Source of the DNA: an uncultured bacterium
GTDB taxonomy: Bacteria > Verrucomicrobiota > Kiritimatiellia > RFP12 > UBA1067
Reading direction: 5' to 3'
NCBI GenBank assembly: GCA_902801025.1
Contig: CADCGZ010000028.1
Coordinates: forward strand, 2,264-66,263
DNA: 64,000 nucleotides
This document shows positions 56,212 to 64,000 of this stretch, piece after piece. The position numbers were made by a program, and so were the translations under genes. The first letter of the stretch is position 1; every line of letters begins with the position of its first letter. The notes under the pieces were generated by a model, which ran no database searches, was not told where the DNA came from, and saw nothing but the letters and a program-made list of their open reading frames with translations.

Positions 56212-57609
56212 ATGAAAGCGAAGCTCACGGTAACCTGCAACAACCAGACCAAGGCGTATGCTCTCCCCGAGCAGGGAGTCAAGATCGGGCGCGACCCCGG
56301 CCAGTGCCAGCTCGCGCTCCAGGACCCGGACGTCTCGTCGCTCCACGCGTTCATGTGCTGCAAGAACGGCGCATGGATGCTCCAGGACCTCGGATCGACG
56401 AACGGCACTTACGTCAACGGGAACAAGATCACGACCGTTGGGCTCAAGTCCGGCGACCGCATCAAGTTCGGCGTGAGCGTCAGCGCAAAAATCGAGATCG
56501 AGGAGCCGAAGAAGGAGGTCGTCGCGCCGCCGAAGCCCGCAACTCCGCCTCCGCCCCCACAGAAGTCGGCGATCAAGGTCGACAACACGCCTCCGCCCGA
56601 GATGAGCGCCGACGACGTCGAGCTCATCAAGCTGCTGAACGAGAAGTTCGCGCTAGCGAAGGAGAACCTTTCCCAGGTCGTCATAGGCCAGATGGACGTG
56701 ATCGAGCTCGTCCTGACGGCGATCTTCGCGCGCGGCCACGTCCTTCTGATGGGCGTCCCGGGGCTTGCCAAGACTCTCCTCATCGCCACGCTCTCGCAGG
56801 TCCTCGACCTCAAGTTCAAGCGTGTCCAGTTCACGCCTGACTTGATGCCTTCCGACATCACGGGAACGGACGTCCTCGAGGAGGACAAGGAGTCCGGTGG
56901 CAGGAAGTTCCGCTTTGTCGAAGGCCCTGTCTTCACGAACATGCTGCTCGCCGACGAAATCAACCGTACCCCGCCGAAGACTCAGGCCGCGCTTCTCGAG
57001 GCGATGCAGGAGCACCACATCACCGTCGGCACGAAGACGTACAACCTGCCCGAGCCGTTCTTCGTCATGGCGACGCAGAACCCGATTGAGCAGGAAGGCA
57101 CGTACCCGCTGCCTGAAGCGCAGATGGACCGCTTCCTCTTCAACATCATCGTCAAGTACCCGAGCGCGGCGGACGAGGAGACGATCATCCGCAACGTGAC
57201 GTCCAACCGCAAGGTCAAGCTCGAGAAGGTTCTCGACGGAGAGACGGTGCAGAAGCTCCAGGACGTCGTGAAGCGCGTTCCCGTCGCGCCCCACGTCATC
57301 CAGTACGCGGCGACGCTCGCGCGGATGTCGCGCCCGAAGGAGCCGGACGTGCCGGACTTCGTCAAGGAGCTCGTCGGCTGGGGCGCAGGCCCGCGTGCCG
57401 GCATTTCGCTCATCACGGCCGCCAAGGCGTGGGCGATTCTTCATGGGCGCCACCACTGCACGATGAAGGACGTCGAGGCGATTGCGATGCCCGTTCTCCG
57501 CCACCGCGTGATCACGACCTTCGCGGCCGAGGCCGCGGGCGTCACGTCCGACGACCTCGTCAACATGCTCCTCAAGGAACTCAAGCCGACTCTCGATCTC
57601 GAGATCTGA
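56212..57609 (+). CDS. FHA domain fused to a MoxR-like AAA+ ATPase
   Basis: N-terminal FHA (GRDPG...SSLHA......W.L.DLGSTNGTYVNG), Pro-rich linker, then MoxR core (VIGQMDVIE, GVPGLAKT Walker A, LLADEINR Walker B). Confidence 0.75.
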   Translation: MKAKLTVTCNNQTKAYALPEQGVKIGRDPGQCQLALQDPDVSSLHAFMCCKNGAWMLQDLGSTNGTYVNGNKITTVGLKSGDRIKFGVSVSAKIEIEEPKKEVVAPPKPATPPPPPQKSAIKVDNTPPPEMSADDVELIKLLNEKFALAKENLSQVVIGQMDVIELVLTAIFARGHVLLMGVPGLAKTLLIATLSQVLDLKFKRVQFTPDLMPSDITGTDVLEEDKESGGRKFRFVEGPVFTNMLLADEINRTPPKTQAALLEAMQEHHITVGTKTYNLPEPFFVMATQNPIEQEGTYPLPEAQMDRFLFNIIVKYPSAADEETIIRNVTSNRKVKLEKVLDGETVQKLQDVVKRVPVAPHVIQYAATLARMSRPKEPDVPDFVKELVGWGAGPRAGISLITAAKAWAILHGRHHCTMKDVEAIAMPVLRHRVITTFAAEAAGVTSDDLVNMLLKELKPTLDLEI

Positions 57610-57610
57610 T

Positions 57611-61418: not shown

Positions 61419-64000
61419 TACGCACGGATCTGCTCCCCGAGACGATGGCGCTGTGGATAATAGCGCTGCTCGCCGTCTTTGGCGTCGCGGCGTGGGTCGC
61501 CTGCCATCTGGCGGTGAAGCGCTTCGCCGCGAACAAGCTCAACGTATGGTACAGGGGGCTCTTGAGCGTGCCGCTCGGGACGATCGCGTGCTGGCTTGTC
61601 CTTCAGACGCTCGGACGCATGATGTTCCTGGCGACGCCCTGGTCGCTGTTCTTCGCGGCAGTCCTCGGTGCTTTCGCAATCGAGGCCGTGAGCGCCTTCT
61701 ACGGCCACGAATGCGCACGTGTTCCGCCGCGGACGGCGAAGATTCTCGTCGCGTGCCGAATGGCGGCCGTGGCTGTCACGCTCCTTGTCCTGATGCAGCC
61801 GGTCATCGTAGGCGAACGCGAACGCACAGTGAAGGAGCGCGTCCTCGTGCTTGTCGACGATTCCGCGTCGATGCACTTTAATGACACGCTCCTTACGGAT
61901 GCGGAGAAGAAGGACATCGTCTCCGCCCTCAAGCTCGACAAGTTCCCGGACGGCGGGATGACGCGCGCGGAGATGGTCCGACGCCTCCTCGCCGCCGGTG
62001 GCGACAACAGCTTCCTGAAGCGTACCGCCCGCAAGTACGAGGTCGACGTCTTCAGGTTCGGAAATGGGCTCCTGCGCGACGAGTCGATCGGCGAGGAGAA
62101 GCCGGTCGACGCAAAGGAAGAGAATTTCCGCTCGGTCACCGACGTAACCAAGGCGCTTGAACTTGCGATCAAGGAGGTCCCCGCCGAGGAGATTACCTCG
62201 ATAATAATCTTCAGCGACGGCATCCACAACGGCGACGCCGGCGTCGAGTCGATCTCCCGCAAGCTCGGCGGATACGGCATCCAGGTCTCCACGGTGCTTG
62301 TCGGCGGCAGCGTGAAGCCGTTCGACCTCGCGATAGCGACCGCCGACTCTCCCGAGTCCGTCTTTCTCGGCGACAAGGTGCGCTTCACAGTGCGCGTTGC
62401 GGCGACGCGCGCCAATGGGCGCAAGGCGAAGCTCCATTTCACCAACGAGAGCGGGCAGCTCGACGAGAAGGAGTTCACCGTAGAGGGCGACGACTGGTCG
62501 AAGGAGTTCAAGTTCACCGACGTGCCGAAGGACCAGGGGGTCTACAGCTACAACTTCTCGGTGACGCACTTGGATGGCGAGCTTTTCGAGGACAACAACG
62601 ACCGCCAGCTCGAAGTCGCAGTCTCAGACGACCGCGTGAACGTCCTTCTCGTCGACGGCCGCCCGCGCTGGGAATACCGATACCTAAGGAACCTCTTCTA
62701 CGGTCGCGACAAGTCGGTGCACCTGCAGGACTGGCTCGTCCATCCCGACTCAATCTACGGCATCCAGCCGAAGCTTCTCGAATATGCGAGTGCATCGCGT
62801 CCGTTCGGGCAGTCCGAGGCCGGCGGATGGCCGATACAGGACAACGACTGGCGCCAGTTCGACGTCATCATAGTGGGCGACATCGGCGAAGACGTGCTTA
62901 CGGAAGACGTCATCGAGCAGCTCAGGTACAATGTCGAGGACAGGGGTGCGCTTCTTGTTCTCATCTCCGGCTCGGAGTACATGCCGTACTCCATCACGAA
63001 CCAGAAGCTCCGCGATCTGATGCCGATAGAGTACGAGCCGTCGCCGCAGAGCCGACGTGTCGCGCCCGAAGACGCGTTCGTCTTCCAGCTTGCGGCGGCG
63101 GGGCGCGGCCACCCTGTCATGAACCAGAGTTCGTCGTCGTCCGAGAACGAGGACATCTGGGCCGAGATACCCGATTTCCACTGGCGGCTGCCGATCTCGG
63201 GCGTCAAGCCGGGCGCGGACATCCTTGCCTACGCGAAGACGAAGAAGGAGTCCGGCTCCGAGGTCGCCGGTGCCGTCGCAGAGTCGATCGCCGCCACTAT
63301 CGAGGAGGATCCAGAGGCCGCGCTGAAGCGCCTCGAGGACATGCGCGGCGAGCAGGGGCGCAACGCGCTCGTCGTGGCCGGCGCGAAAGGCAAGGGCAAA
63401 GTCCTGATGCTGACGACCGACTCGATGTGGCGTCTCCGCTCCAAGACCGGCGACCAGCTGCACCACCGCTTCTGGGGGCAGATAATGCGCTGGGGGGCCG
63501 GAGAGAAGCTCAGGAGCGGCAACATGTACGTCCGTCTCGGCACCGACCAGCTTAGATACGGCGCCGGCGAGCCCGTGAAGGCGCTCGTAAGGTTCCTCGA
63601 CGAGAAGCACAACGGAATCGACGGCCTCGATCCGCGCATCCTCGTCCGGGTCCCGAACAGTGGTGCGCGCGTCTCCGTGTTCAACGCAAAGAAGCGCCCC
63701 GACTCAAACGGGCTCTACGAAGTCGAGATCCACGGCTGCACGACGCCGGGGCTCTACGAGGTGCGGCTTGACTGCCCCAAGGCGCAGGAGATGCTTGGCC
63801 GCCGCTATCCGGCGGAAAAGCTAAAGACAAGCTTCGTCGTGGTCACGGCGAAGCAGCCCGCGGAGAAGGTCGACACTACGTCGACGCGCAACCATGTCGA
63901 GCGCGTTGCGGCCGCAACAGGGGGAAAGGTCCTCACGCCCTCCGAGTATATCGCCCTCAACAGCGACTTCGGCGGCGGCTCGAAGCGCATATCAGACCGC
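61403..64000 (+). CDS. Second large vWA-domain membrane protein (BatB-like), 3' end outside the window
   Basis: Uninterrupted frame from ATG 61403 to the window end, not listed in the ORF track (probably because no stop is reached). N-terminal TM helices and vWA MIDAS (VLVLVDDSASM); overlaps the upstream stop. Confidence 0.6.
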   Translation, partial: MDQNVIRTDLLPETMALWIIALLAVFGVAAWVACHLAVKRFAANKLNVWYRGLLSVPLGTIACWLVLQTLGRMMFLATPWSLFFAAVLGAFAIEAVSAFYGHECARVPPRTAKILVACRMAAVAVTLLVLMQPVIVGERERTVKERVLVLVDDSASMHFNDTLLTDAEKKDIVSALKLDKFPDGGMTRAEMVRRLLAAGGDNSFLKRTARKYEVDVFRFGNGLLRDESIGEEKPVDAKEENFRSVTDVTKALELAIKEVPAEEITSIIIFSDGIHNGDAGVESISRKLGGYGIQVSTVLVGGSVKPFDLAIATADSPESVFLGDKVRFTVRVAATRANGRKAKLHFTNESGQLDEKEFTVEGDDWSKEFKFTDVPKDQGVYSYNFSVTHLDGELFEDNNDRQLEVAVSDDRVNVLLVDGRPRWEYRYLRNLFYGRDKSVHLQDWLVHPDSIYGIQPKLLEYASASRPFGQSEAGGWPIQDNDWRQFDVIIVGDIGEDVLTEDVIEQLRYNVEDRGALLVLISGSEYMPYSITNQKLRDLMPIEYEPSPQSRRVAPEDAFVFQLAAAGRGHPVMNQSSSSSENEDIWAEIPDFHWRLPISGVKPGADILAYAKTKKESGSEVAGAVAESIAATIEEDPEAALKRLEDMRGEQGRNALVVAGAKGKGKVLMLTTDSMWRLRSKTGDQLHHRFWGQIMRWGAGEKLRSGNMYVRLGTDQLRYGAGEPVKALVRFLDEKHNGIDGLDPRILVRVPNSGARVSVFNAKKRPDSNGLYEVEIHGCTTPGLYEVRLDCPKAQEMLGRRYPAEKLKTSFVVVTAKQPAEKVDTTSTRNHVERVAAATGGKVLTPSEYIALNSDFGGGSKRISDR

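Follow-up and report, generated by a model that had tools for sequence, protein, structure and literature searches.

Clusters that combine a MoxR ATPase, a DUF58 protein and a BatA-type membrane protein are widespread, occurring in Bacteroides, spirochaetes, Francisella, Riemerella, rhizobia and the Planctomycetota–Verrucomicrobiota–Chlamydiota (PVC) bacteria, and their mutants have envelope, stress or virulence phenotypes for which a mechanism is missing. How might such a cluster work? The question is raised by one end of a 64,000-nucleotide stretch of DNA from an uncultured bacterium of the Kiritimatiellia (contig CADCGZ010000028.1; hereafter the window), in which four co-directional open reading frames (ORFs) occupy positions 56212-64000 of the + strand. 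They encode a MoxR ATPase with an N-terminal FHA domain, a DUF58 protein and two large membrane proteins with von Willebrand factor A (vWA) domains, the first of which also contains a PA14 domain; an original prediction, made from the letters of the window, had placed the same ORFs at the same coordinates. The cluster adds two handles to the problem, namely a phosphothreonine reader fused to the motor and a PA14 module close to known polysaccharide sensors, and with them two testable questions: which phosphothreonine protein recruits the ATPase, and which glycan is bound by the periplasmic part.

The four ORFs belong to a six-gene operon that is a lineage-typical Bat/MoxR envelope variant, present unremarked in hundreds of public metagenome-assembled genomes (MAGs), and nothing in it shows a new principle. 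On balance, it probably encodes an envelope-maintenance machine of the Bat/RL3499 type, in which MoxR and DUF58 remodel an inner-membrane-anchored periplasmic scaffold of vWA and PA14 domains and, in Kiritimatiellia, the FHA domain adds gating by phosphothreonine. Judged from their sequences, the components are two soluble cytoplasmic proteins, three inner-membrane proteins predicted to be mostly periplasmic and one secreted protein.

The six-gene operon

The window holds the first two-thirds of the operon, which is translationally coupled and vertically inherited. The remainder is read from an extension contig (L001) that is 100% identical to the window across a 15.4 kb overlap and reaches 10 kb further (window position = L001 position + 48589). 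The gene order is MoxR-DUF58-P3-P4-P5-P6, in which MoxR and DUF58 are termed P1 and P2, and P5 and P6 lie beyond the window end. The genes and their domains are the following.

56212-57609 (+): P1, FHA-MoxR AAA+ ATPase, 465 residues; Pfam FHA, AAA_3 and AAA_lid_2, PDB 2r44
56278-56472 (+): FHA domain of P1, residues 23-87; Pfam PF00498, with GarA and other FHA domains among the PDB matches
56473-56610 (+): Pro/Ala-rich flexible linker from FHA to the MoxR core; translation and per-locus domain coordinates
56737-57564 (+): AAA_3 core (residues 176-310) and AAA_lid_2 (385-451) of P1; Pfam
57657-58586 (+): P2, DUF58, vWA-like cytoplasmic adaptor, 309 residues; Pfam DUF58 144 bits, VWA_2 30 bits
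58590-61418 (+): P3, inner-membrane protein, 942 residues, with four transmembrane helices, vWA, CARDB, GATase1-like, PA14 and beta domains and a C-terminal transmembrane helix
58590-58817 (+): BatA_N/TIGR02226 double-transmembrane domain of P3; Pfam BatA 47 bits, TIGR02226
59031-59459 (+): vWA domain of P3 with a metal-ion-dependent adhesion site (MIDAS) of D155, S157, S159, T226 and D255; Pfam VWA_2 and VWA, alignment columns, Foldseek 4jdu
59484-59783 (+): CARDB Ig-like domain of P3 (residues 314-384 according to Pfam); Pfam 33 bits, PDB 2kl6 and 3idu
59790-60464 (+): alpha/beta domain of P3 like class-I glutamine amidotransferases (GATase1-like); PDB 3rht at E 5e-5, alpha/beta fold at residues 401-625, aligns with its counterpart in P4
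60543-60911 (+): PA14 domain of P3, residues 652-774; Pfam PF07691, 58 bits against a cut-off of 24
61284-61376 (+): C-terminal transmembrane anchor of P3, with a basic tail after it on the cytoplasmic side; transmembrane prediction and model
61403-64000 (+): P4, cut by the window end, ATG at 61403, 866 of 898 codons within the window
64104-67670 equivalent (+; L001 15515-19081, outside the window): P5, DUF4175-type, 1188 residues
67667-68707 equivalent (+; L001 19078-20118, outside the window): P6, secreted alpha/alpha toroid, 346 residues

The domain content on which the original prediction stood or fell is borne out. The FHA domain on MoxR scores 71 bits against a cut-off of 20.7, the PA14 domain of the BatA-like protein is recovered by phmmer and Foldseek in addition to its Pfam score, and the MoxR, DUF58, BatA_N and vWA assignments all have Pfam or NCBIfam support. 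The fourth gene, predicted to be a second vWA membrane protein of more than 860 residues, has 898 residues in the extension contig and is of that kind according to an invariant MIDAS, the vWA matches of its homologs, a structure model and a profile alignment. The CARDB and GATase1-like domains of P3 had been overlooked, and two further operon genes lay past the end of the window.

Spacing within the operon is tight, with 47 nucleotides between MoxR and the DUF58 gene at 57657, a 3-nucleotide gap between DUF58 and P3, a 16-nucleotide overlap of P3 and P4, a 4-nucleotide gap between P4 and P5 and a 4-nucleotide overlap of P5 and P6. Housekeeping genes flank it on both sides: prs, pth and the gene of a PALP enzyme upstream, and tmk and holB downstream on the extension contig. 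A promoter and terminator scan of the extended operon gave counts not above those of shuffled sequence, and an Rfam scan of the whole window gave no match.

The exact sequence of P3 occurs on at least 13 public metagenome contigs, and the closest genomes come from goat gut, cattle gut and rumen. One of the contigs with an identical P3 (L003) contains 200 Ns and broken gene calls over P4 and P5 at about 13000-18500 and differs from the window by 493 mismatches over the 7.8-kb region of the four ORFs; these differences look like a scaffolding artefact and not a biological variant.

Distribution of the operon and of its domains

The distribution was surveyed with a P3 profile against one genome per GTDB species, which gave 310 relatives; the best 80 loci were kept and, together with the extension contig, make up the 81 loci referred to below, whose ORFs were called and then searched with profiles built for this analysis. 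DUF58, P3 and P4 occur together in 61 of the 81, and all six genes stand in the same order in 34 loci on contigs long enough to hold them. The loci come from Kiritimatiellia and Verrucomicrobiales, the latter including Roseibacillus, Haloferula, Luteolibacter and the complete genome of Oceaniferula spumae NT6N. Since the six-gene unit is present, in an FHA-less version, in the cultured O. spumae NT6N, genetic experiments are possible.

PA14 is found in 73 of 78 complete P3 orthologs; it is therefore ancestral and near-universal in the P3 proteins of both groups. FHA-MoxR is encoded in 24 of the 81 loci, most of which form one large Kiritimatiellia clade in the MoxR tree; the other FHA branches (L033/L036, L043 and L068) are scattered among FHA-less branches, and the MoxR proteins of Verrucomicrobiales, with 335-360 residues, have no FHA domain. 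The two domains vary independently, as a locus with FHA has no PA14 (L035) and Verrucomicrobiales have PA14 with no FHA.

The FHA-AAA_3-lid architecture was found in at least 11 distinct clusters at 50% identity among 1.84 billion cluster representatives, down to 38% identity, and the Pfam FHA domain was confirmed in 10 of 10 representatives scanned. Databases annotate such proteins no further than 'AAA family ATPase' or 'MoxR-like ATPase', and a GenBank protein of a Verrucomicrobiota MAG that falls in one of the clusters is named just 'hypothetical protein'; no description of the fusion was found in the literature searched. Its gene contexts are varied. One member (P0367) lies in a series of DUF4159, FHA-MoxR, a hypothetical gene, DUF58 and a 727-residue BatA and VWA protein without PA14, and another (P0398) is followed by a fused toroid and DUF4159 protein and DUF58. 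A third, divergent member (P0370; contig L090, 5293-6654; 48% identity) stands alone with no DUF58 and adjoins a PKD-domain protein; two genes away, at 9959-13660, is a 1233-residue Pkinase with many tetratricopeptide repeats (TPRs). No other FHA-MoxR context observed has a kinase close by. A fourth (P0468) stands alone, and in a fifth (P0361; L091 2538-5288, 916 residues) the FHA domain is followed by two complete tandem MoxR modules. The fusion thus recurs and is usually tied to clusters of the DUF58/BatA type. The original description of the fusions as unusual holds relative to Bacteroides and does not hold within the lineage.

Several arrangements were observed beside these. Four proteins of 695-798 residues (P0091-P0094) have multiple AAA-family Pfam matches and no FHA domain. 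A MAG labelled as Lentisphaerales (CAYVJM01) carries two copies of the cluster on different contigs (L021 and L049), one with a plain MoxR and a 2262-residue ORF at the position of P5, and the other on a contig that starts within DUF58 and so does not reach the MoxR gene.

The ATPase and its adaptor

P1 is a MoxR AAA+ ATPase of the MRP/AAA_3 group, with the gene for a vWA/MIDAS partner, DUF58, adjoining. It scores 216 bits against AAA_3 and 65 bits against AAA_lid_2, aligns with the Cytophaga MoxR structure PDB 2r44 at E 1e-72, and its translation contains intact ATPase motifs, namely Walker A (GVPGLAKT), Walker B (LLADE), sensor 1 (ATQNP) and the arginine finger (AQMDRF). Since a transmembrane helix and a signal peptide are both absent, the protein should be cytoplasmic.

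The FHA domain possesses the residues that contact phosphothreonine: the GR motif (R27), SxxH (S42/S43 and H45) and NGT (N64). The arginine of GR and the histidine of SxxH are kept in all 18 aligned FHA-MoxR proteins, down to 38% identity, and the NG[ST] motif varies in a few of them (e.g., NGV or SGM). The linker between the FHA domain and the MoxR core ranges from about 40 to 170 residues across orthologs. With its binding residues intact, the FHA domain can reasonably be predicted to confer phosphothreonine-dependent regulation.

P2 contains the DxSxS motif (as DCSGS) and is a soluble protein with no transmembrane helix; public gene calls use an alternative start at 57675, which gives 303 residues. 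A search for threonines that co-vary with the presence of FHA among the loci returned candidates at the N-terminus of DUF58 and in the cytoplasmic loop of P5. The DUF58 threonine, in the motif 'LPxxTTAT', is found in 96% of loci with FHA against 23% of loci without it; two FHA loci that are placed independently, L043 and L068, possess it, and their nearest sampled FHA-less neighbours in the MoxR tree lack it. This co-variation is confounded by phylogeny, because FHA-less loci of the Kiritimatiellia type share the threonine. The candidates, which track phylogeny, were therefore dropped as evidence and kept as a lead, with 'LPxxTTAT' of DUF58 as the best candidate phosphothreonine site for the FHA domain.

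The inner-membrane vWA proteins P3 and P4

The domain order of P3 is derived from an AlphaFold model (mean predicted local distance difference test, pLDDT, 80.6), PDB profile searches and Foldseek. The protein has four N-terminal transmembrane helices and one at the C-terminus, and its N-terminal region scores 62.8 bits against the TIGR02226 cut-off of 23.05. The Lys/Arg-rich loop between the first two helices holds most of the invariant N-terminal residues; those of BatA_N in the alignment are W34, G35, A36, F39, E54, L57, L58 and R62. According to the positive-inside rule, this loop is predicted to be cytoplasmic and residues 135-900 periplasmic. In vitro membrane-insertion mapping of the BatA-like protein BB0173 was compatible with a periplasmic orientation of its vWA domain (PMC5700661), and the predicted topology of P3 agrees with that mapping.

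The vWA domain of P3, whose MIDAS residues are nearly invariant among homologs, superposes in Foldseek on 4jdu, an 'aerotolerance-related membrane protein' of B. fragilis. The GATase1-like domain is recognized through a profile match to 3rht, which is described as a '(GATase1)-like protein'. For the PA14 region, the top Foldseek matches are PA14 domains, and the nearest solved relatives are the PA14 dyads 6qe7, from RsgI3, an anti-sigma-I factor of Clostridium (phmmer E 3e-15), and 6qdi (E 1e-17), followed by anthrax protective antigen; the profile E-value of 1e-60 is a sum over the dyad. With PA14 relatives this close, sugar binding by P3 is a reasonable prediction.

Paralogs of P3 also occur as orphans (L027 9929-12898, L029, L041, L045 10001-12937 and L063), four of the five with PA14 and one, L041, without it. 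No MoxR, DUF58, P4, P5 or P6 was found in the at least 4 kb around them, and no kinase in their neighbourhoods; their neighbours are unrelated genes, including glnA, a lipid A acyltransferase/heptosyltransferase fusion (lipopolysaccharide), a sulfatase, PhoD and GntR.

P4 is arranged much as P3, with four transmembrane helices, a divergent vWA domain, a CARDB-like Ig domain, a GATase1-like domain, an MG2-like Ig domain and a C-terminal transmembrane helix. Its own Pfam VWA matches are sub-threshold. The MIDAS DxSxS...T...D (D152, S154, S156, T246 and D272) is invariant in 34 homologs, down to 41% identity, among which Pfam recognizes VWA_2 in 10, VWA_CoxE in 7, VWA in 4, MG2 in 16 and DUF7408 in 14. 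A structure model taken from the 99%-identical protein P0241 (pLDDT 83.7) shows, after the four transmembrane helices, two alpha/beta domains (133-300 and 412-670) that alternate with two beta-sandwiches (308-408 and 703-814), and lastly the C-terminal helix. In hhalign, residues 250-570 of P3 align with 267-597 of P4 at a probability of 85% and E 6.5e-6. P4 is thus a remote paralog of P3, as indicated by the MIDAS, the VWA matches of its homologs, the fold of the model and the hhalign alignment. Foldseek with the whole P4 model returned mostly generic Ig-like or CARDB domains and multi-domain glycosidases at very low template-modelling scores and is uninformative about the vWA and GATase1-like domains, whose assignment is based on the motifs, the family Pfam matches and hhalign.

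P5 and P6

P5 scores 20.4 bits against DUF4175 (E 1.5e-4), below the cut-off of 27.3; of its 24 syntenic orthologs, 13 reach E<=0.01 with this family, the best at 3.8e-10. The protein has three transmembrane helices, Ig-like beta domains, a charged helical region of about 350 residues (coiled coil) and a Gln-rich disordered repeat. The repeat is encoded at L001 18218-18669 (66807-67258 equivalent) by a tandem array of about 450 nucleotides with 15/18-nucleotide units, translated as (GENQQ)n and (QQQQG)n. P5 is 1137, 1140, 1188, 1198 and 1222 residues long in L007, L009, L001, L008 and L010, respectively, and the neighbouring P3 proteins are 88-98% identical, which suggests a repeat-number polymorphism in a periplasmic disordered segment. 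The most conserved stretches of the membrane proteins P3, P4 and P5 lie in segments predicted to be cytoplasmic.

P6 has a signal peptide and an alpha/alpha-toroid fold, with an SQHop_cyclase_C score of 32 bits against a cut-off of 26 and matches in 15 of 20 orthologs. Its C-terminal tail, ...RQLPxYQRDETVDE (L001 20077-20118), is invariant in 20 orthologs from Kiritimatiellia and Verrucomicrobiales, and it may be speculated that this acidic tail is a plausible ligand of a periplasmic MIDAS site. The toroid-DUF4159 fusion on the P0398 contig (5965-8241, 758 residues, with an SQHop_cyclase-like toroid) is a hint of the Rosetta-stone type that the toroid of P6 and the GATase1-like domains of P3 and P4 cooperate.

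Relation to known systems

The first four genes resemble bat operons, i.e., BatI of B. fragilis and its homologs in spirochaetes and Francisella, in having a MoxR of the AAA_3 type, DUF58, a BatA_N double-transmembrane protein with a vWA domain and a second transmembrane protein with a vWA domain, and in the periplasmic orientation of vWA, which is supported for BB0173 and predicted here. To this extent the originally proposed likeness to the bat operon stands, and further on it fails: a search of the downstream genes of the extension contig for the TPR, BatD and BatE-type genes expected there found none, even at E<=1, and in place of the TPR proteins BatC and BatE and of BatD (PF13584) come the DUF4175-type and toroid proteins. 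Because BatC, BatD and BatE are absent, the locus is not a canonical five-gene bat operon. Additionally, its vWA proteins are roughly three times the size of those of bat operons, contain CARDB, GATase1-like and PA14 or MG2 domains and have a further anchor at the C-terminus, and an FHA domain is fused to its MoxR. What Bat proteins do in the relatives is itself still unsettled (PMC3557215).

By gene content, the operon looks closer to the MoxR-DUF58-TIGR02226-DUF4175 type represented by RL3499-RL3502 than to the Bacteroides bat operon. RL3499-RL3502 of Rhizobium leguminosarum reportedly encode a MoxR, a DUF58 protein, a TIGR02226/DUF4159 membrane protein and a DUF4175 low-complexity membrane protein. 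Shared features are a MoxR of the MRP/AAA_3 group, DUF58, a TIGR02226 double-transmembrane protein that contains a GATase1-like domain, and a DUF4175-type protein whose transmembrane helices are N-terminal and whose tail is of low complexity, although P5 itself scores below threshold for that family. However, the present operon has two vWA paralogs instead of one membrane protein, inserts of vWA, CARDB and PA14 domains, and MG2; it also encodes one more protein, the secreted toroid, and in Kiritimatiellia its MoxR is fused to FHA.

MoxR proteins generally act with a vWA cofactor and are chaperones for dedicated clients (PMC3893208; PMC3495828). RavA-ViaA, CbbQ-CbbO, NorQ-NorD and CoxD-CoxE, like P1 and P2, pair an AAA+ MoxR hexamer with an adjoining MIDAS vWA adaptor for the ATP-driven remodelling or maturation of a client. 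Those pairs act on cytoplasmic or membrane enzymes; here, DUF58 is the adaptor, and the candidate clients are periplasmic membrane proteins of a structural kind. A link between FHA readers, vWA proteins and MoxR-type ATPases also has precedents. In Sulfolobus, the FHA protein ArnA binds phosphorylated ArnB, a vWA protein of a type that is often paired with MoxR (PMC4858521), and the recently described actinobacterial Esr pathway, which senses surface events, combines a MoxR-vWA pair with a kinase and an FHA protein (PMC13622651). Both systems have FHA as a protein of its own and a kinase gene within the locus; in the present operon the FHA domain is fused to the ATPase, no kinase lies nearby, and the MoxR subfamily and partner proteins differ. 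The PA14 domain shares its fold, clear sequence similarity and an extracytoplasmic place in a membrane-anchored protein with the domains of RsgI3 (6qe7 and 6qdi), anthrax protective antigen and a Marinomonas ice-binding adhesin. Unlike RsgI3, P3 has a single PA14 domain, between the GATase1-like and C-terminal beta domains, and no anti-sigma domain.

Proposed mechanism and alternative explanations

For the envelope-maintenance machine favoured here, we propose that a MoxR hexamer, with DUF58 as its MIDAS co-chaperone, would dock on the conserved cytoplasmic elements of the membrane proteins, i.e., on P3 at the BatA_N loop, on P4 at the N-terminus and on P5 at the loop of residues 80-153. MoxR and DUF58 might then spend ATP to assemble or switch the periplasmic vWA scaffold. 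The scaffold would bind an envelope glycan with its PA14 domain, and partners with the pair of MIDAS sites on the periplasmic side. The FHA domain at the N-terminus of the Kiritimatiellia ATPases may tether them to a phosphothreonine on a partner, in which case a Hanks-type Ser/Thr kinase, encoded in another part of the genome, would gate the remodelling. A role in the envelope is known for RL3499, which is required for membrane integrity and cell morphology (PMC3893208).

Several points weigh against this proposal. No interaction, phosphorylation event or phenotype is on record for the operon, and the Bat family as a whole has no settled account of how a cytoplasmic ATPase acts on periplasmic domains. 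A search of all six frames of the 64-kb window found no Hanks-kinase motif, the candidate threonine of DUF58 also occurs in FHA-less loci of the Kiritimatiellia type, and the topology of P3 and the other membrane proteins is taken from hydropathy and the positive-inside rule only. Leptospira biflexa mutants that lack the bat genes had no phenotype (PMC3557215), and for that reason 'envelope maintenance' may be conditional. A more ambitious form of the proposal, which we think unlikely, is a phosphorylation-gated trans-envelope mechanotransducer: a kinase mark would recruit the FHA-MoxR/DUF58 motor, which would pull on the cytoplasmic loops of P3, P4 and P5 and thereby switch the contacts of MIDAS and PA14 with peptidoglycan or outer-membrane glycans and with the acidic tail of P6. 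If true, this would be an ATP-driven, signal-controlled tether from the inner membrane to the outer envelope in PVC bacteria and the first mechanistic logic for Bat/MoxR-DUF58 systems.

The periplasmic domains could also serve detection. Kiritimatiellia are glycan specialists, a rhamnosidase-type glycoside hydrolase is encoded in the same window, and the closest relatives of the PA14 domain are the polysaccharide-sensing RsgI3 dyad and 6qdi; PA14 might thus detect a polysaccharide (a nutrient, a host glycan, or the cell's own capsule or peptidoglycan), the BatA_N helices relay the event, and MoxR/DUF58 together with FHA and phosphothreonine give the output. Esr offers a precedent for MoxR, vWA, a kinase and FHA at the surface, and the Pkinase near one FHA-MoxR (L090) is giant and receptor-like. 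However, the operon proteins include no sigma or anti-sigma factor, DNA-binding domain, cyclase or kinase through which an output could pass, the FHA and PA14 domains vary independently, and PA14 and the architecture are kept across ecologically diverse Verrucomicrobiales, a conservation that favours a constant endogenous ligand over a variable nutrient. Sensing of this kind is conceivable and, in our estimate, rather unlikely. If the vWA, CARDB and PA14 domains, which are typical adhesin modules, instead attached the cell to host or substrate glycans, they would be expected at the cell surface, yet P3 and P4 are predicted to have an inner-membrane anchor at each end, lack a signal for export to the outer membrane and are strictly linked to a cytoplasmic ATPase and adaptor; a role as adhesin is very improbable.

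The classical function proposed for BatA-E of B. fragilis, i.e., protection of the periplasm from oxidative damage and hence aerotolerance, would suit a gut or rumen anaerobe whose locus shares BatA_N, a pair of vWA membrane proteins, MoxR and DUF58 with bat loci and whose P3 vWA domain superposes on 4jdu. Yet the operon lacks BatC, BatD and BatE and encodes no redox domains, and it is also present in Roseibacillus, Luteolibacter, Haloferula and Oceaniferula, which are believed to be aerobic. An aerotolerance role was also not reproduced in Leptospira (PMC3557215); this explanation is improbable. Membership in the MoxR-vWA ternary systems of anti-phage or other conflict (Kaur et al. 2020) might be suspected from a weak bpMoxR match of P1 and from the listing of FHA as sporadic in the vWA-linked effector components of such systems. 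It was rejected on the evidence that the AAA_3 score of 216 bits is far above the 44 bits of bpMoxR, that no beta-propeller, effector or toxin domain is present, that PADLOC has no match for any of the six operon proteins, and that the neighbourhood is of the housekeeping kind, with vertical inheritance and stable synteny; a conflict function is accordingly extremely improbable.

Other features of the window

Two further ORFs of the window were noted. The first, at 42481-45978 (+), encodes 1165 residues that combine an SMC-type ATPase (SMC_N at residues 2-779) with a complete LpxB, the lipid-A-disaccharide synthase, at residues 802-1123. The SMC_N match covers positions 1-180 of the 220 of the model, so that the C-terminal head is truncated; the ORF could result from an assembly error or a frameshift where smc meets lpxB, or could be a real read-through fusion. 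The second, at 47014-47487 (+), encodes a SecG homolog with a C-terminal extension of about 85 residues that consists almost entirely of Pro/Ala repeats (APAAPA...).

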